Below are positions 21,472 to 46,003 of a DNA stretch of 64,000 nt, piece by piece (position 1 is the first letter of the stretch; each line of letters starts with the position of its first letter). A model generated the notes under the pieces. That model had not been told where the DNA came from. It saw nothing but the letters and a program-made list of their open reading frames with translations, and made no database searches. Both the position numbers and the translations under genes were made by a program. Origin of the DNA: Clostridia bacterium (GTDB lineage: Bacteria > Bacillota > Clostridia > TANB77 > UBA1234); assembly GCA_017518295.1 (NCBI GenBank), contig JAFWVJ010000022.1, forward strand, positions 19,614-83,613, in the 5' to 3' direction.

Positions 21472-22752
21472 ATGAAAAAATTATTACTACTAGTTATTAC
21501 AATTATAGTTTGCTTATGCTTAACAGCATGTGGTGGCCAAGAGGAACCAAAAACAAATGATAACAATGCTCAAAATAGTGAAGTAAATAACCAAGAAACA
21601 TCTAATTATGAAGAACCTGCTAAAGAAGAAACAGAGCCTCTTACAAGAGAAGTAAAAGCAGCTAATGTATGGATGAGCTTACCAGAAAATGTAGATATGT
21701 ATTGGAGAGTAGATGAAAAAAATACTTCAAATTATGGTATTGCTGTAGAAAATAAAAGAGGAAATAATGTAATGTATGGAAGTGAAGGTTGGGATTACGG
21801 ATATCCTCCTCAAAGCGAATTTAATAGACTAGAAAATCGCTATAATTACTATGAATATAAAGGCGATTATAAATGGGATTCTTATGCTCATTTTTATGAT
21901 AAAGGTTGGGATACTCATTATTTCAAAGGAAATTATCCATCAAGTCCACAAACATTCTGTATGGGAAGACAATATGTAATTTTGGATAATTATACTGACG
22001 AGCACGAAACAATTAGCATTGAAGGTATTGGCGATGTTGATACAGTTAAAGGAACTTTGGTAGATTATAACGGTACTGATTATACAGTATATTATTCAGA
22101 AAAATTAGGTTTCAACGTTAAAGTAGAAAATACAGTTCAAGCATGGTATTTAACAAAGTTTGATACAAATGTAGGATCTGGTTTTCCACATGCATTACCA
22201 AATCAAAATGAAATAGCAGCAAATTCTTCTCAAACTTATGATGATTATGTTATTGATGATGAAATTATAGAATTTGATGATGTACCAAACGGACCACTTC
22301 CAGAGGATATAATAGTAACAAAAGTAGATGAGTCTGCAGAAGGACTTGTATTTGCATATTATCAAAAGAAAGATGCACAACTAACATTTGGAGATGTTTT
22401 AACAAATTACACAAAAGATTATACTGAAATTAGAACAGGAAGCGGAAGGCAAAGATGTGCATTTTTAGGATTTAAATTAGATGAAAATGATAGAATTCAA
22501 AGAGCTTATGCATGTGTAATATATAAAGGTGTGCTTTATGCAGTTGAAGGAACCACAGACGGAAGTAAATATGAGTCTAACAAAGCAATTATGAATAAAA
22601 TGTATGGACCAGAAGAAATAGATGACAGAGGTTATCGTTATTCAGCTGTAAAAGGAGAAACACATACAGATGTATGGCAAAACGGTCGTGCAGGCACATT
22701 CCATGAAGCTGGTGCACAAATAGATCAGTATGGAAAGATATATTGTGATTAA
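21472..22752 (+). CDS. Lipoprotein of unknown function
   Basis: Signal peptide plus lipobox LTAC; low-complexity N-terminal linker. Confidence 0.6.
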   Translation: MKKLLLLVITIIVCLCLTACGGQEEPKTNDNNAQNSEVNNQETSNYEEPAKEETEPLTREVKAANVWMSLPENVDMYWRVDEKNTSNYGIAVENKRGNNVMYGSEGWDYGYPPQSEFNRLENRYNYYEYKGDYKWDSYAHFYDKGWDTHYFKGNYPSSPQTFCMGRQYVILDNYTDEHETISIEGIGDVDTVKGTLVDYNGTDYTVYYSEKLGFNVKVENTVQAWYLTKFDTNVGSGFPHALPNQNEIAANSSQTYDDYVIDDEIIEFDDVPNGPLPEDIIVTKVDESAEGLVFAYYQKKDAQLTFGDVLTNYTKDYTEIRTGSGRQRCAFLGFKLDENDRIQRAYACVIYKGVLYAVEGTTDGSKYESNKAIMNKMYGPEEIDDRGYRYSAVKGETHTDVWQNGRAGTFHEAGAQIDQYGKIYCD

Positions 22753-24617: not shown

Positions 24618-24637
24618 ATTGTAAGTGATTTAAATGA

Positions 24638-24667
24638 AAATGATTTTTGGACCTGCCTTAAAAAACA
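24638..24667. repeat. Palindromic ~30-bp element, copy 1 (right arm degenerate)
   Basis: aatgatttttggacctgccttaaaaaacag; about 22 bp upstream of the start of 24689..25423. Confidence 0.8.
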
Positions 24668-24688
24668 GAAACAAAAGAGGAGAACGAT

Positions 24689-25556: not shown

Positions 25557-25778
25557 TCAAAGTGGAGTGCTAATTGGCACCTGCTTCCCATCTTTCCAAC
25601 ATTCAATCAGCTGGCTCTCCAATTCAGAAAGTTGCATGCAAAACGGACACTGAAAATATTTTATTCTATAAACATGCTTCATTCCGATGAATGGGAAGTG
25701 TTCATTCCGGTGAGATTCGTGGATTTGCTCCTCGCTTACACTTACTTTCTGCTTACAGTTAGAACACAAACGCTCCAT
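25557..25778 (-). CDS. Small Cys-rich (zinc-finger-like) protein
   Basis: CSNCK...CPFC; GGAGG RBS. Confidence 0.45.
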   Translation of the reverse strand: MERLCSNCKQKVSVSEEQIHESHRNEHFPFIGMKHVYRIKYFQCPFCMQLSELESQLIECWKDGKQVPISTPL

Positions 25779-25888
25779 AATATAAATACCTCCAAAATTA
25801 TTTTTATTGTTATACGGGAGATAAGAATTAATGTGTCAAACACAAATAATATTATACCACAAGTTTACATAACTTTCAAGAAATTTTT

Positions 25889-25914
25889 GAGTTTACATAC
25901 GAATTTAACATATA
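25889..25914 (+). repeat. 26-bp direct repeat, copy 1 (gagtttacatacgaatttaacatata)
   Basis: Exact 26-bp match to 33254-33279; both lie in non-coding DNA about 100-400 bp upstream of palindromic-element copies. Confidence 0.7.
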
Positions 25915-25990
25915 CAGAAACAGAATATATAGAAGCAAAAAAGATTTGAGAAGGTAAAGTAGTGCTATCGAGTCTCCTTGCCAAATTGAA

Positions 25991-26020
25991 AATGTTTTTT
26001 GGACCTGTCCCCAAAAACAA
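25991..26020. repeat. Palindromic ~30-bp element, copy 2
   Basis: aatgttttttggacctgtccccaaaaacaa; about 30 bp upstream of ATG 26051. Confidence 0.85.
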
Positions 26021-26050
26021 GCATCTTTATGGTAGAAAAGGAGCGAAGAA

Positions 26051-26273
26051 AATGAATGAAGAAAGGAAAAATGAACAAAAATCAAAAGCAGATGAACTAA
26101 CTGAAAGTCTAGATAAGGTTTTAGTAAAAGCAGGATACGGACCAACAAAAGTGACAGAAAAGATTTGTATCAAGAAGAAGTGTGGTATAATAATTCCAAG
26201 AGATTTAATTATGTTTTTCGGACCTGTCCCAAAAAACAAGTCCCAAAAAACAAGAAGCAAAAGAGGAGAATGA
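26051..26273 (+). CDS. Small hypothetical protein, C-terminus read through palindromic element copy 3
   Basis: RBS AAAGGAG before ATG 26051; the ORF-track ORF 25962..26273 starts inside element copy 2, so the internal start is preferred. Confidence 0.3.
26209..26254. repeat. Palindromic element copy 3 plus tandem duplicate of its right arm (tcccaaaaaacaag x2)
   Basis: tatgtttttcggacctgtcccaaaaaacaagtcccaaaaaacaag; upstream of 26275..27900. Confidence 0.85.
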
Positions 26274-26274
26274 C

Positions 26275-27900
26275 ATGAAAAAAATAATTCCAGCAGTTTT
26301 AGTTGTAATAGTTATTGTGGTGGTTGCAATTGTGGTTATGCTTAACAATGCAAATAAAGAAACAATTATTAACACATCAGGAGAAATTATAGAAAAAATT
26401 GAGAACACTTTTGGTGAGGAGAATAAAGAAGAGGAAGTAGAATATAATCCACAGTATGATACTTTGGATGAATATCTAAATGACACAAAATGGCTTTCTA
26501 AACTATATATACCATATTATGCAATGCGAAATGATTTATACTCAACATATGATTGGGATTATGAATATTTAACAAAGCCACAAATAGTGAGCTATGTTAA
26601 AGCAGCAAATGATATTGCTCTTGTTAAAGTACATGTTTTAGAAGAAGAAGTTCGAGATGAATACTATATTGTAGGACTTGAAAATGGAAAAATAAAAATA
26701 GCAAAAATTCCAGAAGATTATGATTGCATTAAACTACCAGAACAGGTAGGTATAAAATTATGTTATGATAAGTCTAATAATGTTTTTAAATATATTTTAG
26801 AAGGTGAAGACTATTACTATGAGGATATTTTTACTTTAGATGGATTTAATGTAAATATTATTAGTCAAGGAAACTCTTTGCCATCAGGAGATTATCATTT
26901 TGAAGATATTGATAGCAATCAATGTGAAATAGAAAATCCTTATCCGCTCAGGTATAGCAAAGAAGGTCGTTACATAGGGGAAAATTTTGAGGGAAAATAT
27001 TTTTGGAAATATGATAATTTAATTAGATATATTAATGAAACAACTAAAGATGATTACACAGATTTTATTAACAAAAACCGTAATAACTTAAAAGATTTTG
27101 CTGCAAGTCATGTAAATTATTCTTATGAACATTATAATGGTGAACGTGCACTGGACGATAGTTTAATTGATGACATTTTGGAACGTGATGGAGATTCTGC
27201 TGGATATATTGAACAAATAACTAACTATGATAGCGCCTTACCAGTAAATTGGAAAGTAGATTTTAAATTTGCAGCTATATTATATAATTTACCATTTTAT
27301 ATGGAGAATTTAATTGTAAATGGTAAAAATTCAAATACATATAAAGGATATAAAGAAACAATTGAAAAATATAAAAATGGAACCTTAGGCAATGATGAAG
27401 AACAAGAGTTTTATAAAAACTTTGATTTAGAAAAATTTATGCAAGATATAGCAAATGACAAAAAATTGAATGATTTAAGAAAAAGAATTAAGACAGATGA
27501 ATATAGTGGATTTACTTTTGAAGAAGAAGCATATTGTACAGCTGTGTATTCGGATTTATTTCAATATATGCCACCAAATCCTTCTGAAAAATACTATAAG
27601 GTTTTTTCGATTACCTTTATGAACGGAAAAAGCGATTCAATAGATGATTATTATGACAATGCTAGAGCGAAGAAAATAAAAATAAAAATAAATGATTGGG
27701 AAAAAGAAATAATTCTTAAAGATACTCCTGAATATCAAAATGTTTGGATAAATTGGGAATCAAAAGGTGATGAATATCAAAAACCAGTTACAGTATCAAT
27801 TGAAGTTTTGGAAAAATATGATGGCGATATAACAGATGATGTGTATTTCTCAGGCATATATATTAATAAAGATCAAAACTTTGTAAGTTTTGCAATTTAA
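26275..27900 (+). CDS. Membrane-anchored secreted protein, paralog family A (longer member)
   Basis: N-terminal and leader DNA nearly identical in layout to 24689; conserved YLND and DGFNVNII blocks. Confidence 0.7.
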   Translation: MKKIIPAVLVVIVIVVVAIVVMLNNANKETIINTSGEIIEKIENTFGEENKEEEVEYNPQYDTLDEYLNDTKWLSKLYIPYYAMRNDLYSTYDWDYEYLTKPQIVSYVKAANDIALVKVHVLEEEVRDEYYIVGLENGKIKIAKIPEDYDCIKLPEQVGIKLCYDKSNNVFKYILEGEDYYYEDIFTLDGFNVNIISQGNSLPSGDYHFEDIDSNQCEIENPYPLRYSKEGRYIGENFEGKYFWKYDNLIRYINETTKDDYTDFINKNRNNLKDFAASHVNYSYEHYNGERALDDSLIDDILERDGDSAGYIEQITNYDSALPVNWKVDFKFAAILYNLPFYMENLIVNGKNSNTYKGYKETIEKYKNGTLGNDEEQEFYKNFDLEKFMQDIANDKKLNDLRKRIKTDEYSGFTFEEEAYCTAVYSDLFQYMPPNPSEKYYKVFSITFMNGKSDSIDDYYDNARAKKIKIKINDWEKEIILKDTPEYQNVWINWESKGDEYQKPVTVSIEVLEKYDGDITDDVYFSGIYINKDQNFVSFAI

Positions 27901-27903
27901 ACT

Positions 27904-27933
27904 TGCCTTTTTGGACCTGTCCCAAAAAACAAG
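27904..27933. repeat. Palindromic element copy 4 (left arm degenerate), overlapping the stop of 26275..27900 and upstream of luxS
   Basis: ttgcctttttggacctgtcccaaaaaacaa. Confidence 0.8.
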
Positions 27934-27963
27934 TTTCAAAAACAAGAAGAAAGGGTTGAAGAA

Positions 27964-28453
27964 TATGAAAAAGATTGAAAGTTTTAAAGTTAATCATGAG
28001 TTGCTAAAAAGAGGTGTGTATGTTTCGCGAAAGGATTACAATTATGAAACAGGTGAAGTGATAGCAACTACTTTTGATATTCGAATGAAGGAACCTAATA
28101 GAGAGCCTGTAATGAATATTGCGGAGGTTCACACTATTGAGCATTTAGGAGCAACCTTTTTGAGAAATCATAAAGATTATAAGAAGGAAACGATTTATTT
28201 TGGACCAATGGGTTGTCGCACGGGCTTTTATGTAATTTTTAAAGGCGATTTGGATTCAAAGGATGTAGTTGGAATTATTAGAGAAATGTTTGAATTTATT
28301 TCAAAATATGAAGGAAAGATTCCAGGAGCAGATCCAAAATCTTGCGGAAATTATTTAGACCAGAATTTGCCAATGGCTAAATTTGAGGCAAAGAAATACT
28401 TGGATGAAGTTTTGAAGAAGATTAAAAAAGAAAACTTAGTTTATCCAAATTAA
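27964..28453 (+). CDS. luxS: S-ribosylhomocysteine lyase LuxS
   Basis: HTIEHL metal-binding motif, PMGCRTG, CGN; ATG 27964. Confidence 0.9.
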
Positions 28454-28454
28454 A

Positions 28455-28484
28455 AATGATTTTTGTACCTGTCCCAAAAAACAC
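28455..28484. repeat. Palindromic element copy 5
   Basis: aatgatttttgtacctgtcccaaaaaacac; between luxS and the Mbeg1-like gene. Confidence 0.85.
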
Positions 28485-28505
28485 GACAAGAATGGTGAGG
28501 TGGCT

Positions 28506-29624
28506 ATGGCAAATATAAATGATTATTTAAATTGGAGAGGCGATCTTCCAATCAACAAAAATTTCCCTTTCAATGAAATTGATGCGTTGATTTTGGCAAG
28601 ATTTTCATATTTGCCTTTTCATAAAATAAAAATGAACTCGAAAGAAACGATTGAAAACATTTCAAAAAGGATGAAAGATTTTTCGAATGATGATTTTATA
28701 TATAATGGCGACAAAGAGCTCATTTCTAATCTTGGAAAAAGCGCGAGATTCAAAGAAATGCTCGTGACGGATTTTGTAAGAAATACGAGCAAAAAACATG
28801 AAGAGCAGTTTTGCGCTATAACAATTCATGTTTCTAATAAAGAAATTTATGTTTCATATATTGGAACCGATTCCACAATAAATGGGTGGAAAGAGGATTT
28901 CAACATGATGTTTTTAGAAAAAATTCCTTGTCAAATCTCAGGTATGAATTATTTGACAAAAATTGGTGAAAAACATCCTTTTTGCAAAATAAGAATTGGC
29001 GGTCATTCAAAAGGTGGAAATATAGCAATTTTTTCTGCGTTGAATGTTGCCAAAAAAATTCAGTCAAAAATAATAAAAGTTTATAATTACGATGGTCCAG
29101 GGTTTAGAAAAGAGATCATCGAGCAGTATGAAAATAGCAGTATTTTGAATAAAGTAGAAACTTATATTCCTCAAGATTCAGTTGTTGGAAGGCTTTTGTA
29201 TCACAAAGAAAAAATAACAATAGTTCATAGCCTAGAAAAAGGCGTTTTGCAGCATGATATTTTTTCTTGGGAAGTTTTGAATGATGATTTTATTTATTCT
29301 GAAAAAATCACAGAGGAAAGCGAAGATATCGACAAGACTATAACGACATGGTTTGAAGAAACATCAAATGAACAAAGAAAAATTGTTGTTGATACGGTAT
29401 TTGATATTTTGTATTCAACAGAAAATGAAAATGTTAAAGATTTAACGCAAAATATTGCGAAAAAAGTGACAAAAGCAATAAAAGCGTATAACTCGATTTC
29501 GAAGGAAGAAAAAGAAACCATAAATAATACGGTTTCGTTGATAGTTAAAAAATATATTAATATAAGAACGGATAGAGAAAAGAAGAAGATTAAAGATTCG
29601 ATAAAAACAATTAGGAAAAGATGA
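28506..29624 (+). CDS. Mbeg1-like / DUF2974 lipase-class-3-like alpha/beta hydrolase
   Basis: GHSKGG nucleophile elbow; family-typical N-terminal region; RBS GGTGAGGTGG. Confidence 0.7.
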   Translation: MANINDYLNWRGDLPINKNFPFNEIDALILARFSYLPFHKIKMNSKETIENISKRMKDFSNDDFIYNGDKELISNLGKSARFKEMLVTDFVRNTSKKHEEQFCAITIHVSNKEIYVSYIGTDSTINGWKEDFNMMFLEKIPCQISGMNYLTKIGEKHPFCKIRIGGHSKGGNIAIFSALNVAKKIQSKIIKVYNYDGPGFRKEIIEQYENSSILNKVETYIPQDSVVGRLLYHKEKITIVHSLEKGVLQHDIFSWEVLNDDFIYSEKITEESEDIDKTITTWFEETSNEQRKIVVDTVFDILYSTENENVKDLTQNIAKKVTKAIKAYNSISKEEKETINNTVSLIVKKYINIRTDREKKKIKDSIKTIRKR

Positions 29625-29649
29625 TTTTTGGGACAGGTACGAAAAACAT
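29621..29649. repeat. Palindromic element copy 6a (opposite orientation), overlapping the TGA stop of 28506..29624
   Basis: atgatttttgggacaggtacgaaaaacat. Confidence 0.85.
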
Positions 29650-29653
29650 GTAA

Positions 29654-29684
29654 AAATGTTTTTCGGACCTGTCTCAAAAATCAT
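29654..29684. repeat. Palindromic element copy 6b, overlapping the stop of the LysR gene; full-length 31-bp palindrome
   Basis: aatgtttttcggacctgtctcaaaaatcatt. Confidence 0.85.
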
Positions 29685-30565
29685 TTAATAGTTTTAATAA
29701 TTTCTTTAATAAATTTATTATTCTCGTTATTTTTATTTGTAGCTAAATAAATTGTTCTTGTAGGGAAGGCTATGTCGCTTTTAATTTCGACTAGCTTTCC
29801 TTTTTTAATTAAGTCACTAATATAAGGCTTGTTAAATAAAGCAAAACCATAGCCTTGCACAATTAAATCTAGCGCCATTTCAAAAGAATCTATGTCTAAA
29901 AATGGCGTGATATATAGATTGTTTTCAGATAAGAAGTCATCCAAGAGAATTCTAGTAGCAGACTTTTTGCCTGTGGCAATAAAAGGATATTTTGAAATAT
30001 TATCCTTTGTGATTTTTTTGATATTAAATTTTTCAACAAATTCTTTAGAAGCAACAAATACTCTTTCGACTTTTTCCCACTCAATATATGAAATATTTTC
30101 TCTAAATAGATCATTTCTATTGATAAACCCAATATCTACAGAGTTATTAATAATAGAATCAAGAATTTGTTCATTAGACAAAATTTCAAGTTTAATATTT
30201 AAGCCAGGATTTTTTTTAATAATCTTTGGTATGGCAGGAGCTAAGATTATCCTTGCACTTCCGAAGCTGCTTGCAAAATTAAGATTCTTTGGAGATGTAC
30301 TGAATTTTGATAAAGCTTCCGGCACATTCTCTAATGATAAAATAGAATTTTCAATTATCTTAAAGATTTCTTCGCCTTCTTTAGTAAATTCAACACCATA
30401 TTTAGTTCTATAGAATAAAGTGCAATTTAATTCACGTTCTAATTTTTTTAATTGATGGGTGATGGCAGGCTGTGAAATAAAAAGATTGCTAGATGCCTTG
30501 GTGATATTTTTAGTTTTTCCAACTTCGTAAAAAATTTTATATAAATCAAGATTAATATTGTTCAT
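29681..30565 (-). CDS. LysR-family transcriptional regulator
   Basis: N-terminal HTH (ITKASSNLFISQPAITHQLKKLE); start at ATG 30565 with AAGGAG RBS rather than ORF-track 30652. Confidence 0.9.
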   Translation of the reverse strand: MNNINLDLYKIFYEVGKTKNITKASSNLFISQPAITHQLKKLERELNCTLFYRTKYGVEFTKEGEEIFKIIENSILSLENVPEALSKFSTSPKNLNFASSFGSARIILAPAIPKIIKKNPGLNIKLEILSNEQILDSIINNSVDIGFINRNDLFRENISYIEWEKVERVFVASKEFVEKFNIKKITKDNISKYPFIATGKKSATRILLDDFLSENNLYITPFLDIDSFEMALDLIVQGYGFALFNKPYISDLIKKGKLVEIKSDIAFPTRTIYLATNKNNENNKFIKEIIKTIK

Positions 30566-30716
30566 ATGGACTCCTTTTAAATATAAATATTTTAAATAAC
30601 TGATATAAAAACTATGTATTTTATTTATATCACAAAACGCACTATAATTCAATTGTAAAGTAAAAAATTATAGTAGTTTTTCGAATGTCTTAAGAAAACA
30701 AAAGGAGGAAGCATCT

Positions 30717-32021: not shown

Positions 32022-32133
32022 CCAATAATTTCATGTGTGTCCCCAAGTCAAATTTTTGATTTTATCTCCGTCCCGAAATCATAATATAGACAAAAGAGGC
32101 GATATTGGGTATAGTAAAAGAGGAGGAGAAGAT

Positions 32134-33102
32134 ATGATTTTTTGGTTTATCCTATGCTTTTTGCTAGGTGGAGCAGCGGCTGGAATTGAATATTATTTAA
32201 AAATCAAAAGAGATAAAGACCAGTATTATTCATCTACTTATTACCGCTTTACGCAAAAGGATTATAAAGCTGTAATGAATGATACAGGCGCTTTAGGTGA
32301 ATATGATACATATAAAAGTCTTAAAAAGCACGAAGATATAGGTGGAAGGTTTTTATACAATGTGTATTTGCCTAAAGAGGATGGAACGACGACAGAAATA
32401 GATATGCTACTTATCACGCCAAAAGGAATCTTTGTCTTCGAAAGCAAGAATTTTAGTGGAATAATTTTTGGAGAATATGATCAAAAGAATTGGACACAGT
32501 ATTTGAATCGTCACACAAAAGAGCATTTTTATAATCCAATAAAACAAAATGAAACTCATATAAAATATTTAAAAGAACAACTGAAAATGATTTTTGGACC
32601 TGTCCCAAAAAACATAGCGATATATTCGATGGTGGTGTTTTCGAAAAGATGCAAGCTAGGGAAGGTGCCAGAATTCACGGCTGATACATTTGTAATTAAA
32701 AGAGAAAATGTGGAGCGAGTAGTAGATAATATAATAATGAGCAAAGCATCAAATGATATTACTTATAAAGAGGTAGATGAAATACAAAAAGCATTATTTG
32801 CTTATACACAAAAAACTAAGCAAGAAAAAGAGAAGCATGTAGAGGATATAAGAAGTAAAAGTGCCATTAATTATGAAAGAACATCTAAAGATGATGCACT
32901 AAAGAATAGGCTAAAAGGATTTCGCACAGAAACGGCAAGAAAATATCGAAAGCCACCATATTATATATTTAATGATGAAGAACTAGAAAAACTGATTGCT
33001 ATAAAACCAAAAACACAAGCTGAAGTATATAATATATTGCCAAAAGTAAAAGCAAATTATTATAGTAAAGAAATAGTGAAGATAATAAATGAAGAGAAGT
33101 AG
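32134..33102 (+). CDS. NERD-domain protein with C-terminal HRDC-like domain; contains an in-frame copy of the palindromic element
   Basis: RBS AGAGGAGGAG before ATG 32134; NERD core (EIDMLLITPKGIFVFESKNFSG); C-terminus like RecQ HRDC. Confidence 0.75.
   Translation: MIFWFILCFLLGGAAAGIEYYLKIKRDKDQYYSSTYYRFTQKDYKAVMNDTGALGEYDTYKSLKKHEDIGGRFLYNVYLPKEDGTTTEIDMLLITPKGIFVFESKNFSGIIFGEYDQKNWTQYLNRHTKEHFYNPIKQNETHIKYLKEQLKMIFGPVPKNIAIYSMVVFSKRCKLGKVPEFTADTFVIKRENVERVVDNIIMSKASNDITYKEVDEIQKALFAYTQKTKQEKEKHVEDIRSKSAINYERTSKDDALKNRLKGFRTETARKYRKPPYYIFNDEELEKLIAIKPKTQAEVYNILPKVKANYYSKEIVKIINEEK
32586..32615. repeat. Palindromic element copy 7, in-frame inside the NERD gene (encodes MIFGPVPKN)
   Basis: aatgatttttggacctgtcccaaaaaacat. 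Confidence 0.85.
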
Positions 33103-33133
33103 AAATGTTTTTTGGGTGTGCCCAAAAAACAAG
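33102..33133. repeat. Palindromic element copy 8 (degenerate core gggtgtgccc), directly after the NERD stop codon and before a terminator
   Basis: aaatgttttttgggtgtgcccaaaaaacaag. Confidence 0.7.
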
Positions 33134-33135
33134 TT

Positions 33136-33166
33136 AAAAAGAGGCAACTTATGTTGCCTCTTTTTT
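33136..33166 (+). terminator. Intrinsic terminator after NERD gene and element copy 8
   Basis: agaggcaacttatgttgcctct plus TTTTTT. Confidence 0.8.
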
Positions 33167-33253
33167 GATTATTAAATTATTATTACAGTTTTTTACTTCA
33201 CATATTCAATATACACATTTTTTATGAGCACAAAAATCAATAAAAAAATATAG

Positions 33254-33279
33254 GAGTTTACATACGAATTTAACATATA
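33254..33279 (+). repeat. 26-bp direct repeat, copy 2
   Basis: Exact match to 25889-25914. Confidence 0.7.
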
Positions 33280-33677
33280 GTCTTTACGATTGAAATTTTA
33301 ATTTAAGGTTTTGTTCGCTTTAAAATTCCTTCTCATAGATGATAACATTTTAAGTGAATTAAAAAATAGCTATAAAAAATCATTTTAAAAAAGAGGAGGA
33401 GATAATTATGAATAAAGAATTAGTTTTAGATTGGTTGTTAGCAAAAGAACTTATGGAACAAGAAAATGAATGTGTTGAAATTGATAGTTGCCTAAAAAAC
33501 TAAAACCATTACTTATAGATGAAGATAAATTTTATTTTGAAGCAAGTACACTATATCAAAAACGTGTTATAGAAAAATGATATAAAAAATTAATGGAACT
33601 CGCTTTGTTGAAAGTGACAGGAAATTTGTATGATGTGAAGATTGAGGTTCTTGGAAGCCGTTGTTGTGCGGAATAAA

Positions 33678-33708
33678 AAATGTTTTTTGGACCTGTCCCA
33701 AAAAACAT
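33678..33708. repeat. Palindromic element copy 9, upstream of the WG-repeat gene
   Basis: aaatgttttttggacctgtcccaaaaaacat. Confidence 0.85.
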
Positions 33709-37326: not shown

Positions 37327-38358
37327 ATGGTTGGTTTTGGAAGTTTCTTAAAAGATTATTTAGAATTTCATAATATTTCACAATCAGAGTTTGCTATTCG
37401 ACTTGGAATTACTCAAAAGCACATGAATGAAATTGCAAATGGCAAAGTTCCTATTACAGCTGAATTAGCAGCAAACATTAGTCGTTTAACTGGTATAGAT
37501 GCAAGCTTTATTATCAATGTTGAAAATGACAAAAAGCTAAAAGAAACTATAATAAATGACTTAGGCACAGAAAAAGCAGTAGATAAAATGCTTAAAGAAA
37601 ATTTTTCTTTAAAAGAACTTAAAGAAAGAGAATGGGTGAAGTTTTTAGATATTACTTCGCCACTTCAAAACTATTTAGATATTCTAAAGTTTTTAAAAAT
37701 AAAGGACTTGTCTATAATTCCATCTTTAGAAAAACAAGTATTATTTAAGAAGGATGGAGAAGACTTTAACAAGCTTGCATTATGGATTGCGCATTGTGAT
37801 GAAATTTGTGCAGATCAAAAAGTTAATGAATATAACAAATTAAATCTTGCATTTTTAGTAGAGGACTTAAATAAACTTGCTTATAAAGGAATTCATGATA
37901 TAAATGAAATACAAGATATTCTTAACAAATATGGATTTTATTTTGTATGTGATAAAGCACTAAAAGGAACAAAAGTAAGAGGTTGCTTTAAAGTAAGAGG
38001 ATTAACACCTACAATTTATAATACAGCAAATTATGCTGGACTAGATTCTCTATATTTTGAGATATTACATGAAATAGGACATTGCAAATCTGATTATAAC
38101 GAAGCAAAGAATAAAACTATAATAGAATCAACAGAAGAAAAGGAAAAAAGAGCAGATAGCTTTGCAATTAACAATATGATAGGTGAAGAAAAATGGATGT
38201 TAATTTTAGACTCTGATTTAACAGAAAAATCACTTTTAGATATTTCTAAAAAGTATAAAATACCTATGTGCTATATTGTTGGAAGATTAGCTAAATTTAA
38301 GAAAATTCCTTATAATAGTACTTTATATAATAAATATGACGTAATAAAAAGCGCATAG
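37327..38358 (+). CDS. HTH-XRE DNA-binding domain fused to ImmA/IrrE-family zinc metallopeptidase
   Basis: N-terminal HTH (QSEFAIRLGITQKHMNEIANG); HEIGH zinc-binding motif (ILHEIGHC). Confidence 0.85.
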   Translation: MVGFGSFLKDYLEFHNISQSEFAIRLGITQKHMNEIANGKVPITAELAANISRLTGIDASFIINVENDKKLKETIINDLGTEKAVDKMLKENFSLKELKEREWVKFLDITSPLQNYLDILKFLKIKDLSIIPSLEKQVLFKKDGEDFNKLALWIAHCDEICADQKVNEYNKLNLAFLVEDLNKLAYKGIHDINEIQDILNKYGFYFVCDKALKGTKVRGCFKVRGLTPTIYNTANYAGLDSLYFEILHEIGHCKSDYNEAKNKTIIESTEEKEKRADSFAINNMIGEEKWMLILDSDLTEKSLLDISKKYKIPMCYIVGRLAKFKKIPYNSTLYNKYDVIKSA

Positions 38359-38453
38359 AAGTAATTTGCAAGGCAATTTAATAGTAGTATTAGTTGAAGC
38401 AAATCACTTGAAGTATGGGTGGTTTGCTTTTTTGAGTAAGGAGGTATGATTAA

Positions 38454-38834
38454 ATGTATAAAATTGTTCGTATAATAGGAATAATCATTAGAAGTCAATT
38501 TTTAGCAAATGCTTTTGAATTTTATTTTGGCAAAGATGGGATGGGCTTGCTGTATGCATATATTATAAATGCTACAATTGGAGAAGCATTACTTTATATG
38601 ACTTCATTTAGTTTGGTAGGAACCTTTTATGAGAAGAATTCATTTCCTACAGTAGGAAGCTTATCATATACGGCATTTTATATATTAAATAATTGTATAT
38701 TAATTGCTTCATGTCTATTATGCAGATATTTCAACTTGCATATAGCAATTTCTATTGTTATATATACAATAATAGAAATGATATTGTATTACTTGTTTTT
38801 TAAAATTAATAACAAATCATATTTTACAAATTAA
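38454..38834 (+). CDS. Small integral membrane protein
   Basis: RBS AAGGAGG; 3-4 TM. Confidence 0.55.
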   Translation: MYKIVRIIGIIIRSQFLANAFEFYFGKDGMGLLYAYIINATIGEALLYMTSFSLVGTFYEKNSFPTVGSLSYTAFYILNNCILIASCLLCRYFNLHIAISIVIYTIIEMILYYLFFKINNKSYFTN

Positions 38835-38846
38835 TGAGGTGATTAC

Positions 38847-39614
38847 ATGGGTAGACCAATTGGAAAATGTCACATTTGTGGAAAAGAATGTGAATTAACA
38901 TATGAACATATTCCACCAAAGAAAGCATATAACCATAAACCTACAAAAATGTATATAGGAAAAGAGTACTTTAAAGATCTTGAAAAAAGAGATATCAAAG
39001 ATACAAGTAAGTTGAGATATACAGATTTTCAAAAAGGAGTAGGTGATTATACTTTATGTGAAAGGTGCAACAGTACTACTGGTAAATGGTATGCAGGAGA
39101 ATATATTAAGATATCTAATGCCATTTATGATTATTTAGGTCATCATCTAGAAGAATTAAAAGATGCTAAATCGGTTGAATTAGATTTTAAAGATGTATAT
39201 CCCTTAAAATTCTTTAAACAAATAATTGCTATGTTTTTGTCTATAATACCAAATGAATATTTGGAAAACCATAAAGAATTAAGGAAATATGTATTAGATA
39301 GAGACAGTGTTGAATTTTCTAACAAAAAATATAGAATAAGTTTGGGACTTTTGAAACAAGATTTTGAAGGATGGTCTGGAATTAATCATTTATTAATGTG
39401 TAATGGAAAAATAAAACTAATATCATTTCTTGTTGTGGCTCCATTTTATTTTGTGTTGGAATTTAATCCGGAAGAAATTGTTTTTGATAATTTGCTTGAT
39501 ATAACTAGTATCGGACACCAATATAACTATAATGATAGGATAGCTTTAAATATAAAGTCAAATCTATTTTTAGAAAGTGAAGTTTTTCCGATAAACTTGT
39601 TTTATCATAAATGA
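38847..39614 (+). CDS. HNH-endonuclease-domain protein
   Basis: CHICGKEC...EHIPPKKAYN...CERCN matches the HNH CxxC...H-N...CxxC architecture. Confidence 0.5.
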   Translation: MGRPIGKCHICGKECELTYEHIPPKKAYNHKPTKMYIGKEYFKDLEKRDIKDTSKLRYTDFQKGVGDYTLCERCNSTTGKWYAGEYIKISNAIYDYLGHHLEELKDAKSVELDFKDVYPLKFFKQIIAMFLSIIPNEYLENHKELRKYVLDRDSVEFSNKKYRISLGLLKQDFEGWSGINHLLMCNGKIKLISFLVVAPFYFVLEFNPEEIVFDNLLDITSIGHQYNYNDRIALNIKSNLFLESEVFPINLFYHK

Positions 39615-39764
39615 AATATGCATTTTTAAGCTCTAAATAATGATCGAAAATGTAAAAACCGTAGTTGACAATAATTGAAAATGCATTTTCGAGTATTATG
39701 ATATCATATGAAAACGTAAGCCAGTAATACCAATACTTTTATCAAAAATATTTTTTCAAAAATG

Positions 39765-39793
39765 TTGACATAATTGTTGCTACACAATATAAT
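39765..39793 (+). promoter_or_regulatory. Sigma-A-type promoter for the HEPN (pseudo)gene
   Basis: TTGACA-17 bp-TATAAT (perfect consensus). Confidence 0.7.
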
Positions 39794-39828
39794 AACTATA
39801 CAATAATTCAAAGGAGAAAATGAACATT

Positions 39829-40369
39829 ATGTATGAACTTAATTCTGATAATATAATGAATAAATTTGGTGATGACATTCGAAAAATGATAGGTGACTTT
39901 TCTATATTGTGGAATCTGTATGAAAAAAGTCTTTTTAAGGATGCAGAGGAAAAATATAGAATAATAAATAATAAGAGAAAAAAATGATAAGATTTTTCAA
40001 GAGAACATACATGATGGTATTATAAAAATAAAAAGTGAAAGCAGTTTTTTTCAAAATAACGAAAATGAAATAGACAAATGCTTTTTAAATTTAAATTCTT
40101 TTCTTCGAAACTATTATCATAATGATTCATATAAATATAGTGCCCAAGGTATAATTGATTTTTTTAGGGTAAATGATAATGAAAATGCAAAAAAAGAAGT
40201 TGAAAACTTGTTTGATAATCCTGTTGAGCAATGGGGGTCAAAAGAGAAGTTTCATTTATTATTAATTGTTATTTATAGGGTTAGAAACAATATGTTTCAT
40301 GGAGAAAAAGATGTTATAAAGTTAAAAGATCAAAAGAGCTTTTTTGCATATGTAATAGCATGCTTCTAA
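39829..40369 (+). pseudogene. HEPN-domain (Abi/RiboL-PSP-like) gene interrupted by a frameshift in an A7 homopolymer (39978-39984)
   Basis: Perfect promoter TTGACA-17-TATAAT; N-terminal 52-aa ORF stops at 39985; the +1 frame continues to 40369 and encodes the HEPN Rx4-6H motif (YRVRNNMFHG). Deleting one A restores a single ORF. Confidence 0.55.
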
Positions 40370-40477
40370 TGATTATTGATAATATAGATATAAAGTTGCA
40401 AAACTTATTGTAGAACAAAAATCCTTTCTTTTATCAAATTAGTGTGAATTTCTTAATAGAAAGGAGAAATTAAAATG

Positions 40478-40501
40478 AATAAAAGAATAAAAGAATAAAA
40501 G
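40478..40501 (+). repeat. Tandem 8-bp repeat (AATAAAAG)x3 between a strong RBS/ATG and the GGCT-like ORF
   Basis: Three perfect units; the unit is not a multiple of 3, so copy number sets the reading frame. Confidence 0.85.
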
Positions 40502-40545
40502 AATTATTCAGAGGTGCCAATGTAATCATAGATTACCCTGGCCAA

Positions 40546-41193
40546 TTGTACACAAATGATGAAGCAGATATTTGCGTAGAAACAAAATACGCACAAGAAT
40601 TAAGCATCATTTATTTCCAATTAAGAGATTACTTTGTTAAAGAAATCGATTATTTGAACAAATATGATTTCTATGGCAGCTTGGCTGAAAACTACAATAG
40701 GCTAATAAAAAAGAATGGAGATATTAAAGAAAATCTTCAAACATTTTTATTAACTATAAAAACAGCCTTATACTTTGCTTATGGATTAAACATGGATAAG
40801 GAACAAATGAAAGAAAGATGCCCTGGAGCTATTCCTGTTGGTATAGCAACATTGGACAATTACAAATTTGTTTTAGACTCTGCAGGAACAGCTAGTGTTG
40901 TTCCTGAAAAAGGTTCAAAAGTTGAAGGATTACTTTGGCTAATTAATACAGATGGGGAAAAGGCACTAGATAGATATGAAGGCACAAATTTGACAACTCC
41001 ATGCTATATTAAGAAACACTTAGAAATCGAATTCAACAATGAAAAATCTAAGGCTTTAGTCTATGTTTCGAATAGAGACATTATAGACAAGCCTATTAGA
41101 AAAGACTACATCAATAGAGTAGTCCAAGCAGCAAAAGATGTTAGACTTTCATCAAAGTATATCAAGGATAATCTTGATAAATATACAAATTAA
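40546..41193 (+). CDS. Gamma-glutamyl cyclotransferase (GGCT/AIG2)-like protein with N-terminal extension
   Basis: YFAYGLNMD...E GGCT motif; the in-window frame has only a TTG start with no RBS. An upstream ATG with a strong RBS is out of frame because of a 3-unit 8-bp repeat (see findings). Confidence 0.7.
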   Translation: MYTNDEADICVETKYAQELSIIYFQLRDYFVKEIDYLNKYDFYGSLAENYNRLIKKNGDIKENLQTFLLTIKTALYFAYGLNMDKEQMKERCPGAIPVGIATLDNYKFVLDSAGTASVVPEKGSKVEGLLWLINTDGEKALDRYEGTNLTTPCYIKKHLEIEFNNEKSKALVYVSNRDIIDKPIRKDYINRVVQAAKDVRLSSKYIKDNLDKYTN

Positions 41194-41196
41194 CTA

Positions 41197-41233
41197 AAAA
41201 TAGACCATTGTATAAGCAATGGTCTATTTTTAT
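41197..41233. terminator. Bidirectional intrinsic terminator
   Basis: atagaccattgtataagcaatggtctat flanked by A- and T-runs. Confidence 0.75.
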
Positions 41234-41520
41234 AAATCTATTATACTATAAACTTCAACATTATTCGCAGAAAATGCTTCAAAGTCAACTACTTTCATAT
41301 CAAAACCGCCTATATTTGGTGAAACTTCAAAAATGTTTTCTTTTGTCATAATACTACCAACATGATTTACGAAAACAGATGGTTCAATAGAGGCAATGAA
41401 TGCGATTGAATTTTTTTCGCTGCCATCATAGCCTCTTAAATCATTTATGAAAATTCCTTGATTTAAATATTTTTGTTTTTCTTCATTTATATATCTTTTA
41501 CTATCAATATAATAATTCAT
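41230..41520 (-). CDS. Hypothetical small protein
   Basis: RBS GTGAGG; bidirectional terminator shared with GGCT-like gene. Confidence 0.5.
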   Translation of the reverse strand: MNYYIDSKRYINEEKQKYLNQGIFINDLRGYDGSEKNSIAFIASIEPSVFVNHVGSIMTKENIFEVSPNIGGFDMKVVDFEAFSANNVEVYSIIDL

Positions 41521-41656
41521 AATAAAAACCTCACTTTTTGAAGATTATATAATAAAGTTTTTAGATCGTAAATATCTGTCTTATGGAAACTTAATTTTTC
41601 TTAGTATGTTCGCTAGATCTTTACAATTTGTTGTGCTAATCTAGTTGTGAAATAAA

Positions 41657-42577
41657 ATGAAGGAAGAAATAATTATGGAAACTATAGAAAAAGCAAGACC
41701 TTTTGTTAAGTGGGCTGGAGGTAAAGCAGGACTTATTCCTCAAATAACAAAGTACTATCCAGATGCTTTAAAATCAGGTCAAATAGAAAGATATATTGAA
41801 CCATTTCTTGGTGGGGGAGCAATTCTTTTAGATGTACTTCAAAAGTATGATGTAAAGGAAGCCTATGCTTATGATACAAATCAAGATTTGGTTAATGCAT
41901 ATAATGTGATAAAAACGGATGTAGATAATCTTATTAAGAAATTGCAAAAATATGAAAAAGAATATTTGCCATTGGATGAAGAAGAAAGAAAAGAGTACTA
42001 CTACGATTTAAGAGATGAATATAATTCTGCAGAAGTTAAGTCTGGAAAGCTATCATATAAAAGAGCAGCACAGTTTATATTCTTAAACAAAACATGCTTT
42101 AATGGTTTGTACAGAGTAAATGCAAGTGGTGATTTCAATGTGCCAATGGGTAATTATAAAAATCCGACAATTTGCGATACTGAAAACTTACTAAAGCTAT
42201 CTAGATTACTACAAAATGTTGAAATTATCTGTGGAGATTACCATGATACATTAGAGTTAGTTAATCCAAAAACTTTTGTGTATTTTGATCCACCTTATAG
42301 ACCATTACCGGATACTAATGGTTTTACTTCATACACAAAGGATGACTTCAATGACGAAGACCAAAAGAGGTTGGGAGAATTCTATAAGCAACTAAGTCAA
42401 AAAGATGCAAAATTGATGCTAAGTAATTCTAATCCAAAGAACACAAATGAAAGTGATACATTCTTTGATGACTTATACAAAGGCTTTTATATAAATGAAG
42501 TACAGGCGAATAGAGCAATTAATTCAGATGGCGCAAAGAGAGGCAAAATTTCTGAGCTACTGATAATTAATTATTAG
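41657..42577 (+). CDS. Dam-like N6-adenine DNA methyltransferase (DpnM-like, GATC)
   Basis: FVKWAGGK motif and DPPY catalytic motif (VYFDPPYRPL). Confidence 0.9.
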   Translation: MKEEIIMETIEKARPFVKWAGGKAGLIPQITKYYPDALKSGQIERYIEPFLGGGAILLDVLQKYDVKEAYAYDTNQDLVNAYNVIKTDVDNLIKKLQKYEKEYLPLDEEERKEYYYDLRDEYNSAEVKSGKLSYKRAAQFIFLNKTCFNGLYRVNASGDFNVPMGNYKNPTICDTENLLKLSRLLQNVEIICGDYHDTLELVNPKTFVYFDPPYRPLPDTNGFTSYTKDDFNDEDQKRLGEFYKQLSQKDAKLMLSNSNPKNTNESDTFFDDLYKGFYINEVQANRAINSDGAKRGKISELLIINY

Positions 42578-42585
42578 AGGTTACA

Positions 42586-43380
42586 ATGAAAGAAAAAACT
42601 TATTATTTTAATAAAAAAGATTTTAAGTTAATAAATAAAGATACATTAAAAGCTACTAAAAATATGAAGGATAAAACATTTGATATGATTTTTGCAGATC
42701 CTCCATATTTTTTGTCTAATAGTGGCATAACTTGTAGTGGCGGTAAGATGGTAAGTGTAAATAAAGGCGAGTGGGATAAAGCAAAGTCGCTTGAAGACAA
42801 GCATGAGTTCAACAGAGAGTGGATTAGAGAGTGTTATAGAATTTTAAAAGATGATGGAACGATTTGGATAAGTGGAACACTTCACAATATTTATTCTATT
42901 GGTATGGCACTTGAAGAAGAAGGTTTTAAAATCATTAATAATATTACATGGCAAAAAACAAACCCACCACCAAACTTAGCTTGCAAGACTTTTACACATT
43001 CAACAGAAACAGTATTGTGGGCTAGGAAAGATATTAAAGGAGCAAAATATAAATTTAACTATAAATTGATGAAAGAGCTAAATGGCAACAAGCAAATGAA
43101 AGATGTATGGACAACTTCTTTGACAAAACCATCAGAGAAGAAGTTTGGCAAGCATCCTACACAAAAACCATTAGAGTTGCTTGAAAAAATTGTACTAGCT
43201 TCAACTAATGAAAATGATTTGATATTAGATCCTTTTAGTGGAAGCGGTACTACTGGAATTGCAGCTGCAATGCATAATAGAAAATATATTGGAATTGATT
43301 TGGATAAAAGCTATTTAGATATTTCTATTAAGAGATATGAAAGCTTAAATGGAGGACTAGATGGAGAAAAGAAATTTTGA
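42586..43380 (+). CDS. Second N6-adenine DNA methyltransferase (DpnA-like, beta class)
   Basis: DPPY (IFADPPYF) near N-terminus; AdoMet motif DPFSGSGTTG at C-terminus. Confidence 0.85.
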   Translation: MKEKTYYFNKKDFKLINKDTLKATKNMKDKTFDMIFADPPYFLSNSGITCSGGKMVSVNKGEWDKAKSLEDKHEFNREWIRECYRILKDDGTIWISGTLHNIYSIGMALEEEGFKIINNITWQKTNPPPNLACKTFTHSTETVLWARKDIKGAKYKFNYKLMKELNGNKQMKDVWTTSLTKPSEKKFGKHPTQKPLELLEKIVLASTNENDLILDPFSGSGTTGIAAAMHNRKYIGIDLDKSYLDISIKRYESLNGGLDGEKKF

Positions 43381-44209
43381 TGAATGGATTGGTGGATTTA
43401 GAGAGAGCATTGCAAATTATAAATACTATGTTGATTTTGATGTTGTTTATGAAAATGTCGAAAAATTCAAGGTTGAATTGAATATTTTGAACAGCTTGAT
43501 AGGTTCGAAGAATATAGAAAAGGAGTTCTTGGATATTATTAAGCAATATCCTAATACTTTGAAATGTGTACCATTTTTATTGGCTGTTAGAAGATTGGAA
43601 ATTTTAGCTCAAGATGAAGACATGCAATACATTTATAAATTTGCTCAAATGAATTACGCTCCAGAACAATATGCTGTATTGATGAAAGAGACAGGATTAT
43701 TTGAATTGCTTGAAAACCATTTGGTAAGTAGTTTGATAGACTATGCGCTTGGCGTTGAAGTAGGATTAAACTCAAATGGAAGAAAAAATCGTGGTGGGCA
43801 TTTGATGGAAGATTTAGTCGAAAGCCACATAAAAAAAGCTGGATTTAAAGAGTATTATAAAGAGATGTACTTAAATGAGATTGAAGAAAAATGGGGACTC
43901 GATTTATCGAGTATTTCAGGAGATGGAACTTCAACAAAGAGATTTGATTTTGTTATAAAAACCGACAATATGGTTTATGGAATTGAGACTAATTTTTATG
44001 CTTCTGGTGGTTCTAAACTTAATGAAACAGCTAGAAGTTATAAGATGATAGCTGAAGAAGCCAAGAATATTAAAGAATTCAAATTTGTTTGGATTACTGA
44101 TGGAAGTGGCTGGGTGTCAGCTAGAAGAAACTTGAAAGAGACATTTGATGTGTTAGAAAATATATACTGCATAAAAGACTTAGAAGAGGGAGTACTTAAG
44201 AAATTATAA
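43361..44209 (+). CDS. DpnII-family type II restriction endonuclease (GATC)
   Basis: Size, position after two GATC-type methylases and family-like sequence; overlaps the methylase gene by 20 bp. Confidence 0.8.
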   Translation: MEKRNFDEWIGGFRESIANYKYYVDFDVVYENVEKFKVELNILNSLIGSKNIEKEFLDIIKQYPNTLKCVPFLLAVRRLEILAQDEDMQYIYKFAQMNYAPEQYAVLMKETGLFELLENHLVSSLIDYALGVEVGLNSNGRKNRGGHLMEDLVESHIKKAGFKEYYKEMYLNEIEEKWGLDLSSISGDGTSTKRFDFVIKTDNMVYGIETNFYASGGSKLNETARSYKMIAEEAKNIKEFKFVWITDGSGWVSARRNLKETFDVLENIYCIKDLEEGVLKKL

Positions 44210-44297
44210 TATAAAATACGAGAGCAAAGTATTTAGGTGAGTAGTTGGCGCATAGATGCTTTGCTTTTTTATATATAATAAAAAAGGAGGAGAGAGT

Positions 44298-45449: not shown

Positions 45450-45944
45450 ATGGCTGAATTAAGAGATTTGTATGATATAAATAGTAATAAGACAGATAAA
45501 ACATATATGAAAGGTGATCCGATTCCCGAAGGTTATTATCCAATGGTGGTAATGGTTGTTATTAGAAATTCTAAAGGTGAATTTTTAATGCAAAAAAGAG
45601 TGGAATCTAAAGGTGGAGATTGGGGAGTAACTGGTGGTCACCCTAAATCTGGAGAAACGCCTATGGAAGGTATTATTACCGAAGTTAAAGAAGAATTAGG
45701 ATTAGATTTTTCTAATGAAAGATTTGTTGAATATGATTCTGGTTGTGACGGAAAAGATTGTTACAAGATGTATTTTGTTACTAAAGATATAGATATTAGC
45801 GAAATCACAATTCAAGAGGAAGAGTTAAGTGAAGTAAGATGGTTTACCATGGATGAATTAAAAAGTATGGTAGAGTCTGGCGAACTAAACGAAGACCAAA
45901 TCGCATGCTTTAATAAAGTGTGCAAGTTTCTTGGTCGCAAATGA
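45450..45944 (+). CDS. Nudix hydrolase (paralog of the C-terminal domain of 50923..51918)
   Basis: Nudix box GGHPKSGETPMEGIITEVKEELG; about 85 percent nucleotide identity to 51437-51918. Confidence 0.85.
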   Translation: MAELRDLYDINSNKTDKTYMKGDPIPEGYYPMVVMVVIRNSKGEFLMQKRVESKGGDWGVTGGHPKSGETPMEGIITEVKEELGLDFSNERFVEYDSGCDGKDCYKMYFVTKDIDISEITIQEEELSEVRWFTMDELKSMVESGELNEDQIACFNKVCKFLGRK

Positions 45945-45970
45945 TTCTTGGGACAGGTCTCAAAATCATT
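45940..45970. repeat. Palindromic element copy 10 (opposite orientation), overlapping the TGA stop of Nudix gene 45450..45944 and preceding the truncated kinase fragment
   Basis: aatgattcttgggacaggtctcaaaatcatt. Confidence 0.8.
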
Positions 45971-46003
45971 CTTATGATATAATTACTGTTGGAGATGATA
46001 CAA

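Follow-up and report, generated by a model that had tools for sequence, protein, structure and literature searches.

The locus analysed here raises the question of how a short and almost perfect palindrome came to lie in frame within an otherwise intact protein-coding gene, and of what kind of element it represents. The window, by which we mean the whole stretch of 64,000 nucleotides (64 kb) under analysis, belongs to an uncultured rumen Clostridia host and has a G+C content of ~30%; its GC skew is positive throughout, with no change of sign, and the window is therefore not the terminus. At positions 32586-32615 of the forward strand, direct reading gives aatgatttttggacctgtcccaaaaaacat, as a preliminary description of this DNA had it. 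This sequence comprises two inverted arms of 11 nucleotides (nt), ATGATTTTTGG and CCAAAAAACAT, which differ from perfect complementarity by a single mismatch at the position denoted W in the repeat consensus and are separated by an asymmetric 7-nt centre, ACCTGTC. The consensus of the repeat, ~30 bp in length, joins arms of the form ATGWTTTTTGG and CCAAAAAWCAT to the same highly conserved centre in an 11-7-11 layout. A search of the window with the 21-nt core TTTTTGGACCTGTCCCAAAAA recovers 10 matches at up to 3 mismatches, where 100 shuffled sequences lead one to expect 0.00. A profile made from the copies gives exactly 11 significant matches, the best of which is the intragenic copy (E8; position 32582 in the list of copies; E = 4.8e-11), an exact match to the core, and a relaxed-pattern scan of the 64 kb adds no copies to these 11. 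Positions 32586-32615 are thus a true member of a repeat family, as had been proposed.

The gene that holds this copy (32134..33102, forward strand) encodes a 322-aa protein of the NERD-HRDC type, defined by Pfam matches, alignments and an AlphaFold2 model with a mean pLDDT of 95.2. The alignment shows that no family-invariant residue has been lost, E88, D90, E103 and K105 included. The NERD domain is placed by Pfam at residues 52-170 (E = 5e-30) and the HRDC domain at residues 256-318 (E = 3e-10). The element encodes residues 151-161 and is read, with no break in the frame of the gene, as K-MIFGPVP-KNIAIY; it lies within the NERD domain rather than between that domain and the HRDC tail, where it had previously been placed. 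In the model the insertion occupies the end of a helix (135-154) and the following loop (155-162), ahead of a strand (163-169), with a local pLDDT of ~80. The predicted site is accordingly a helix-to-strand loop at the surface of the NERD domain, joining the final helix of the fold to its final conserved strand, and not the interdomain linker formerly suggested.

The protein has 774 database homologues, the closest non-identical one being 56% identical, and was aligned in a set of 24 sequences and in another of 120 (the window protein and 119 homologues). In both alignments the extra segment MIFGPVP is confined to the window protein, and its five central columns contain residues in none of the 119 homologues. 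The stretch from Q138 to R172 measures 28 residues in 111 homologues and 27-30 in the other eight; only in the window protein does it reach 35. The insertion is thus missing from orthologues, as the preliminary description had anticipated, and the same residues in orthologues, which it had named as the mark of chance similarity, were sought in these columns and not found. When its codons are aligned with those of the two closest homologous genes, the gene shows a net gain of exactly 21 nt (32587..32607, forward strand), the window reading CTG AAA / ATG ATT TTT GGA CCT GTC CCA / AAA AAC ATA at a point where the homologue in locus L085 has CTT AAT / AAA GAT ATT and that in L083 has TTA ACA / AAG CAA TTA, neither with inserted codons. 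The gain corresponds to residues 152-158, and its placement is ambiguous by a few nt because it is flanked by an A-run. An addition of 9-10 residues had been forecast at this position; the alignment bears out the position and reduces the size to 7 residues. Given the 21-nt gap in both homologous genes, the site before insertion was probably an A-run of the form CTG AAA / AAA AAC.

The same homologues are nearest for both flanks of the insertion, and a chimeric gene fused at the element can therefore be ruled out. Every contig of this species that was read encodes the identical protein, and the same copy is present in all four of the loci of this species that were scanned. The database record holds no insertion-free allele, the 90% cluster consisting of the same protein and an N-terminally extended ORF call, so that the event is neither datable nor visible as a polymorphism. 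No clear target-site duplication is visible at the NERD site, since the flanking A-runs also belong to the palindrome and no duplication can be separated from them. As for the host protein itself, PADLOC returned domain-level matches only, to PglW and DpdF, and its membership in a defence system was rejected on that basis.

These observations bear directly on the simplest alternative, that the likeness is accidental or that the residues are native coding sequence belonging to the NERD family. The 21/21 core match with matching flanks, where none is expected, the empty columns in 119 of 119 homologues and the 21-nt difference in the codon alignment together refute this view, to which we assign almost no probability. 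No point in favour of a chance likeness was found. We conclude with high confidence that the palindrome arrived within the gene by insertion, as a true copy of a repeat that moves or duplicates, and that the gene survived because the gain is a multiple of three, the element is free of stops in the frame used and the site is a loop. It is the only clear intragenic copy seen in the repeat family.

The other copies show where the family is usually found. Ten of the 11 copies in the window lie between 24.6 and 33.7 kb, within 9 kb, and occupy nearly every intergenic spacer of that stretch; the extragenic copies likewise number ten of 11. E1 (24635..24668, forward) is situated between the stop codon of an HD-domain gene and a 244-aa gene, and E2 (25987..26021, forward) upstream of a 73-aa ORF. 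The 3' tail of this ORF, read as MFFGPVPKN, is overlapped by E3 (26206..26240, forward), which precedes a 541-aa gene and has a 14-nt tandem duplication in its right arm. E4 (27907..27934, forward) separates the 541-aa gene from luxS, and E5 (28451..28485, forward) separates luxS from a Mbeg1-like gene. Between two convergent genes, E6 (29621-29651, reverse) and E7 (29651-29686, forward) form an inverted doublet (29621..29686) that folds as one long hairpin of -41.4 kcal/mol (z-score -11.5). Beyond the intragenic copy, E11 (33104..33133, forward; position 33100 in the list of copies; GGGTGTGCCC; profile E = 1.5e-6) lies directly 3' of the TAG stop of the NERD-HRDC gene and ahead of a canonical terminator (33136-33165); this copy, with its degenerate core, had been correctly recognised as "copy 8" after the stop codon. 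E9 (33676..33708, forward), upstream of a 588-aa gene, is common to a related genome within a 95%-identical segment, and E10 (45939..45974, reverse), the sole copy outside the cluster, abuts a NUDIX gene.

Copies abut or overlap stop codons, and the ATGA flank of the element supplies the TGA stops of the genes ending at 29624 (by way of E6) and at 45944 (by way of E10). Nine of the 11 are co-oriented with the genes, and six lie, in sense orientation, 22-39 nt upstream of the next start codon. A further candidate, E0 (32050..32082, forward; aaatttttgattttatctccgtcccgaaatcat), scores below the profile threshold and precedes the ribosome-binding site of the NERD gene; since the metagenome contig L073 shows an intact copy where the homologous junction falls, E0 may be a decayed copy.

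The folding energy of the consensus copy is -11.3 kcal/mol for RNA and -9.2 for DNA, at a z-score of about -4.5, and the RNA folds of single copies range from -1.3 to -13.3 kcal/mol. Folding is poor in several copies, which contain uncompensated mismatches in the inner stem (TTTTCGG, TTTTTGT; C at column 15, T at column 17). In a comparison of 27 distinct copies the centre and the inner arms (TTGG-A..TGTCCC-AAAA) keep their sequence, and the outer arms show both variation and covariation. In these outer arms double changes occupy 28 cells, as against 17.5 +/- 2.8 after shuffling, a count reached in none of 500 shuffles; the covariation score is 0.181 against 0.119, and the register of the pairing beats every slid register. 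Pairing of the outer arms independent of their sequence argues for a hairpin over a protein that recognises each arm. Conservation of the core sequence extends to three genomes, and a subfamily variant, TTTTCGTACC, occurs at non-orthologous sites in two of the genomes, as expected for copies from a common source.

Related copies have a narrow distribution. A sheep-rumen metagenome-assembled genome resembling RGIG6952 has at least 11 co-oriented copies within 13 kb; they surround the same LysR and DHH genes in syntenic sequence (loci L001 and L077), and 10 co-oriented ones lie in L077. Inspection by eye added a variant copy at about position 7700 in this relative. A more distant relative, whose NERD gene is the 56%-identical one, has six variant copies with the centre ATGTGTC in 4.5 kb beside that gene, including a doublet and copies between terminators and promoters; the inverted doublet that is second to the one in the window lies at positions 3252-3319 of L084. 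The exact pattern has 68 hits across 185,579 species genomes, mostly single matches in unrelated phyla, and about 20 of the 68 represent one conserved Collinsella site. We take the single matches to be mostly due to chance, and the only related-looking hits come from the RGIG6952 representative genome (2) and RGIG5831 (1). The exact pattern was also found in two short metagenome contigs, both from close relatives. The viral, phage and plasmid collections scanned contain no match to the repeat, and a scan of 22-36 kb against Rfam at E <= 1 gave chance hits only, with microRNA models on the doublet and no matching family. A literature search retrieved no paper with the repeat sequence. The family is lineage-restricted, occurring in a few related uncultured rumen Clostridia at apparently low copy number and clustered in one variable chromosomal region, and has not been described before.

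Comparison of the window with its relatives shows that several breakpoints in gene content coincide with copies or fall near them. Window positions 32948-33151, which include the 3' end of the NERD gene and E11, align with L001 4435-4231, and positions 33097-33707 with L001 3661-3047. Between these two blocks the relative has a His-phosphatase gene flanked by two copies, and the window has the single copy E11; the crossover point cannot be located in this case because the three sites are too diverged. In the same relative the NERD gene is reduced to a 155-bp remnant with an in-frame stop. In L073, the sequence upstream of NERD is joined at a copy to the unit formed by E2 and the 73-aa gene. 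A 3.8-kb block (about 25893-29681), comprising E2-E7 and four genes, has no counterpart in the relative, where the Zn-ribbon and LysR genes lack it between them; the right end of the block falls at E7 and the left end ~90 nt before E2. The relative in turn has a block ordered copy - HD gene - copy - 83 aa - copy - 592 aa, located after a 242-aa gene whose window homologue is the front half of a single 426-aa gene. The NUDIX gene has a copy upstream in the relative and downstream in the window (E10).

The two genomes are ~75% identical over the LysR and DHH genes and 95% identical over 33097-33707, much of which is non-coding, a difference that points to recent exchange of the latter segment. 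Copies at the same position in related genomes are found only inside this 95%-identical segment, and in the ~75%-identical core a copy found in one genome is lacking in the other. That copies are not fixed in position in the diverged core argues against a fixed regulatory role at particular genes.

Given the above observations, we consider it probable that the intragenic sequence is a copy of a REP/MITE-type repeat, non-autonomous and specific to this lineage, which is moved by an enzyme encoded elsewhere and was tolerated as an in-frame insertion; the MITE-like origin that the preliminary description had offered as one of two options is likewise the better reading. The family normally resides in short intergenic spacers of one variable chromosomal region in a few related rumen Clostridia. 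The element may fold as a hairpin in single-stranded DNA, with its conserved centre TTGG-ACCTGTC-CCAA serving as the likely recognition site of an enzyme encoded elsewhere in the genome, the likeliest candidates being a recombinase or an HUH/Y1 transposase like those that mobilise REPs. Such an enzyme would copy or move the element. One copy entered the probable A-run (CTG AAA / AAA AAC) of the NERD-HRDC gene, giving a protein longer by the seven residues MIFGPVP. The intragenic copy presumably has no function of its own.

The conserved centre, the covarying outer stems, the occurrence of singlets as well as inverted doublets, the lineage-specific variants and the orientation bias together most resemble the REP/REPIN type of element. 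Against a REP/MITE origin count the lack of a nearby transposase or recombinase, the absence of an insertion-free allele from the databases, the seemingly low and clustered copy number, the uncompensated inner-stem mismatches and the absence of a clearly visible duplication. Pfam detected no transposase or recombinase, Y1_Tnp included, either across the 64 kb of the window or across 21 kb of L077, the related locus, and none is apparent among the ORFs of L019.

The breakpoints described above lend themselves to a different account, in which the element is the recombination site of an integron-like cassette array, and a recombinase encoded elsewhere integrates circular units of an element plus a gene at resident elements and excises them there. 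In that case the NERD copy would be either a scar or the result of a stray event at a secondary site. This account, which we regard as unlikely, draws on the 11-7-11 layout with its asymmetric centre, and on the nearly uniform orientation of the copies in both genomes, where they separate single unrelated genes. The copy - His-phosphatase - copy arrangement facing a single window copy with flanks that match on both sides, the junction in L073 of the left flank of NERD with the right flank of E2, the 3.8-kb block that is absent from the relative and has its right end at E7, the recent exchange indicated by 95% identity of the cassette segment beside core of ~75%, and the low copy number at one locus all fit it as well. 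The same stretches of 64 kb and 21 kb of the relative, however, contain no integrase or recombinase; the site is not attC-like in length, polarity or conserved part; and the crossover points are not resolvable. Moreover, a clean 21-nt insertion in the frame of a gene is not expected of a recombination site alone, and REPs too mark variable regions, so that breakpoints at copies are no proof of site-specific recombination. In its fullest form, the account would make the 30-bp hairpin the site of a previously unrecognised cassette system of rumen Clostridia with no integrase nearby, through which single genes, defence-type ones among them, would be taken up, excised and passed from species to species as units of site and gene at one chromosomal hot spot, the NERD copy being a by-product at a secondary A-rich site; to this more specific proposal we give slightly less weight again.

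A cis-regulatory role, which for the NERD copy would mean an internal operator or promoter as the preliminary description had also proposed, appears decidedly improbable, and among the serious rivals an operator or RNA element ranks last. The element could on this account be the operator of a dimeric regulator, for example the LysR-type protein of the cluster, or a protein-bound RNA hairpin in 5' untranslated regions. The arrangement TTGG-N7-CCAA fits the T-N11-A form of LysR sites, a LysR-family gene, at 29681-30652 in the window, is found inside the cluster in both genomes, six of 11 copies precede a start codon in sense at the short distance given above, those of the distant relative lie just upstream of good -35/-10 promoters, and the core is conserved in three genomes. 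On the other hand, the divergent spacer between LysR and DHH (30653-30716), which would be the classical LysR target, has no copy, and where copies adjoin the LysR gene they do so on the 3' side. Copies are also found inside a gene, after stops and between convergent genes, occur in both orientations and are not kept at orthologous positions in the diverged core. Their identity over ~30 bp with flanks and their shared subfamily variants fit common descent better than independently selected sites, and no Rfam family matches. Promoter-like sites are not enriched: sigma-70-like matches number 57 against the 57.2 expected from shuffles, and the one at 32508-32535 is unremarkable, so an internal promoter was rejected; for the NERD copy the promoter-or-operator option has no support. 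A leader peptide starting at the ATG of the element was likewise set aside, its frames and stops being inconsistent among copies, and none of the consensus sequences compared by eye, namely those of dif/Xer sites, parS and sigma-54 or ECF promoters, fits.

The finding itself is of moderate interest. Selfish palindromes inserted in frame are one route to new protein loop sequence, which is well documented in Rickettsia and in a small number of other bacteria. The present case is unusually clean, with an exact gain of 21 nt, 119 insertion-free homologues and a confident model, and indicates that a 30-bp repeat suffices. The behaviour of the family at cassette boundaries is the part most worth attention and the more consequential, in that copies cluster at the boundaries of variable genes, some of them defence-related, in segments recently exchanged between species. 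If a dedicated enzyme acts on these sites, they would constitute a new cassette-shuffling system in gut anaerobes. If none does, the family would be an ordinary REP-like one, whose value for annotation lies in explaining odd C-terminal tails, stops supplied by a repeat and spurious ORFs such as the reading MFFGPVPKN.

Compared with known systems, the element behaves like a REP or a MITE, yet its match to the defining features of each named family is incomplete. attC sites have the organisation R''(RYYYAAC)-L''...L'-R'(GTTRRRY), span 57-141 bp and contain extrahelical bases, and CALINs are clusters of attC sites without an integrase. Like these, the copies are co-oriented structured sites between single genes (E1-E5, E9 and E11 in the window, and the 10 in L077) that abut the upstream stop, and the gene content between them differs among related genomes. 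Judged on architecture, however, they are unlike attC in their 30-bp length, in a polarity of GTTTTTT...AAAAAAC rather than AAC...GTT and in having no purine/pyrimidine boxes; the R''-L''/L'-R' organisation is missing, and the centre is conserved and the ends variable, the reverse of attC. With this architecture, a cassette system built on them would not belong to the integron attC family. Unlike complete integrons, the window and L077 give no Pfam hit to the integrase IntI, although such an absence is the very definition of CALINs. The PeSLs of T4-type phages, reportedly described by Arbiol and colleagues in 2010 as "mobile regulatory cassettes" that carry an early promoter, are comparable as short repeated stem-loops that flank small variable genes and mediate the shuffling of these genes between related genomes; the present element differs in having no promoter and in being chromosomal rather than phage-borne.

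Closer parallels are offered by the small dispersed repeats. REPs are imperfect palindromes of 20-40 bp, mostly extragenic, often located after stops, dispersed and mobilised by RAYT (HUH/Y1) enzymes, whose gene lies elsewhere in the genome with REPs on its flanks. The present family shares with REPs and REPINs the short imperfect palindrome with a hairpin, the mostly extragenic position, often just after stops, and the lineage-specific variants, and with REPINs in particular the combination of singlets and inverted doublets that form long hairpins (29621-29686, and L084 3252-3319). It is unlike REPs in that the 5' flank is AAAATG rather than a conserved tetranucleotide of the GTAG/GGAG type, no RAYT is present in the DNA examined, the copy number looks low, the copies are clustered in one variable region and the orientation is near-uniform. 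With MITEs it shares terminal inverted repeats (ATGWTTTTTGG / CCAAAAAWCAT); MITEs, in contrast, measure 50-500 bp and have an IS-derived interior, and the element, at about 30 bp, consists of arms and a 7-nt centre only.

For the intragenic copy the nearest precedent is the RPE of Rickettsia. Ogata and colleagues are said to have found in 2000 that RPE palindromes were inserted in frame in unrelated protein-coding genes, which gained a peptide and remained intact. With a length of about 100-150 bp, RPEs specify a conserved peptide (30-50 residues) and are found in dozens of alpha-proteobacterial genes; other intragenic MITEs include intragenic ERIC and the QMITE1 of Coxiella. In-frame palindromic elements within genes have been documented for Rickettsia RPEs and for other MITEs (PMC10969869). 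As with RPEs, a palindrome lies here in frame in an unrelated gene, at a tolerant site, with the gene intact (a 21-nt gain in a helix-to-strand loop); unlike RPEs, it is 30 bp long, adds 7 residues, is represented by one clear intragenic case and belongs to an uncultured rumen Clostridia host. We know of no report of an in-frame insertion of a selfish palindrome from the Clostridia. Much smaller than the earlier examples, the NERD-HRDC copy is a new instance of a known phenomenon, in a phylum other than that of Rickettsia.

Two copies of the ~30-bp palindromic element, E3 (26206..26240) and E4 (27907..27934), carry a tandem duplication of the right arm, at 26228-26255 and 27922-27950 respectively. 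In E3 the unit GTCCCAAAAAACAA is present twice, as against once in the orthologous copy on contig L074, while in E4 the second arm persists in a decayed form, TTTCAAAAACAAG. The 3' end of a called 73-aa ORF (26052-26273) lies inside E3, which it reads as MFFGPVPKN, in the same frame as that used by the copy within the NERD-HRDC gene. The tail of this ORF differs between the window and L074 owing to the 14-nt duplication, which implies that the element provides the C-terminus of the ORF and that this end lacks conservation.

The 426-aa lipoprotein-like gene (21472-22752) is single in the window, whereas its matches in the relative (a sheep-rumen MAG locus, L077; 3956-4684 and 7799-8515) form two genes of 242 aa and 238 aa, lying 3.1 kb apart with element-bounded genes between them. 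The window sequence at the join of the two halves, CCAAATCAAAATGA, resembles the extended left flank of the element. The spacer filled in the window by a 54-aa DpnD-PcfM gene (45263-45427) is exactly that which holds a palindrome copy in the relative's locus L019 (5217-5260), and GTGATTCTT, directly before the DpnD-PcfM ATG in the window, looks similar to one of the element's arms. Next to copy E10, the NUDIX protein of the window ends in five residues that differ from those of the relative.

At 33408-33677 the window carries a pseudogene of an 89-aa gene whose intact form is present in the related genome (L077 13934-14203). The window version shows a frameshift past about 26 codons and a CGA to TGA change, and its called ORF is only 31 aa. 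Only the final ~155 bp of a NERD-HRDC gene are left in the related species (L001 4279-4435; L077 12846-13002), with 87% identity to the window and an in-frame TAA, and a 265-aa gene stands in place of the remainder.

A second repeat, GAGTTTACATACGAATTTAACATATA, unrelated to the palindrome, occurs at 25878-25914 and 33243-33279 (26 nt exact; 89% over 37 nt). Each copy lies in a long spacer upstream of a palindrome copy, E2 and E9 respectively, and contig L074 also carries the repeat, which may represent a promoter or other junction sequence. Of the promoter-like matches in this region, the best (25879-25851; TTGAAA-17-TATAAT plus a TG upstream of it) belongs to an uncalled 73-aa minus-strand ORF (25557-25778) with four-cysteine zinc-ribbon features, which is conserved in the relative, adjoining the LysR gene.

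A palindrome, GGGATTTTTAGGACCTGTCCCAAAAATCCC, is conserved in Collinsella as one copy per genome in about 20 species genomes of ~59% G+C (loci L003, L009, L010, L013, L016 and about 17 others). It has a 20-nt core in common with the window's family, which is probably a coincidence.

The element cluster is surrounded by defence-type genes (37327-45149 in the window; L077 18968-21029). One is a Peptidase_U49-like gene matching PD-Lambda-2_B (E 5e-19); others encode DpnII-type methyltransferases and endonuclease, and in the relative there are the BREX genes brxA, brxB and brxC. The behaviour of the region is that of a variable or defence island.
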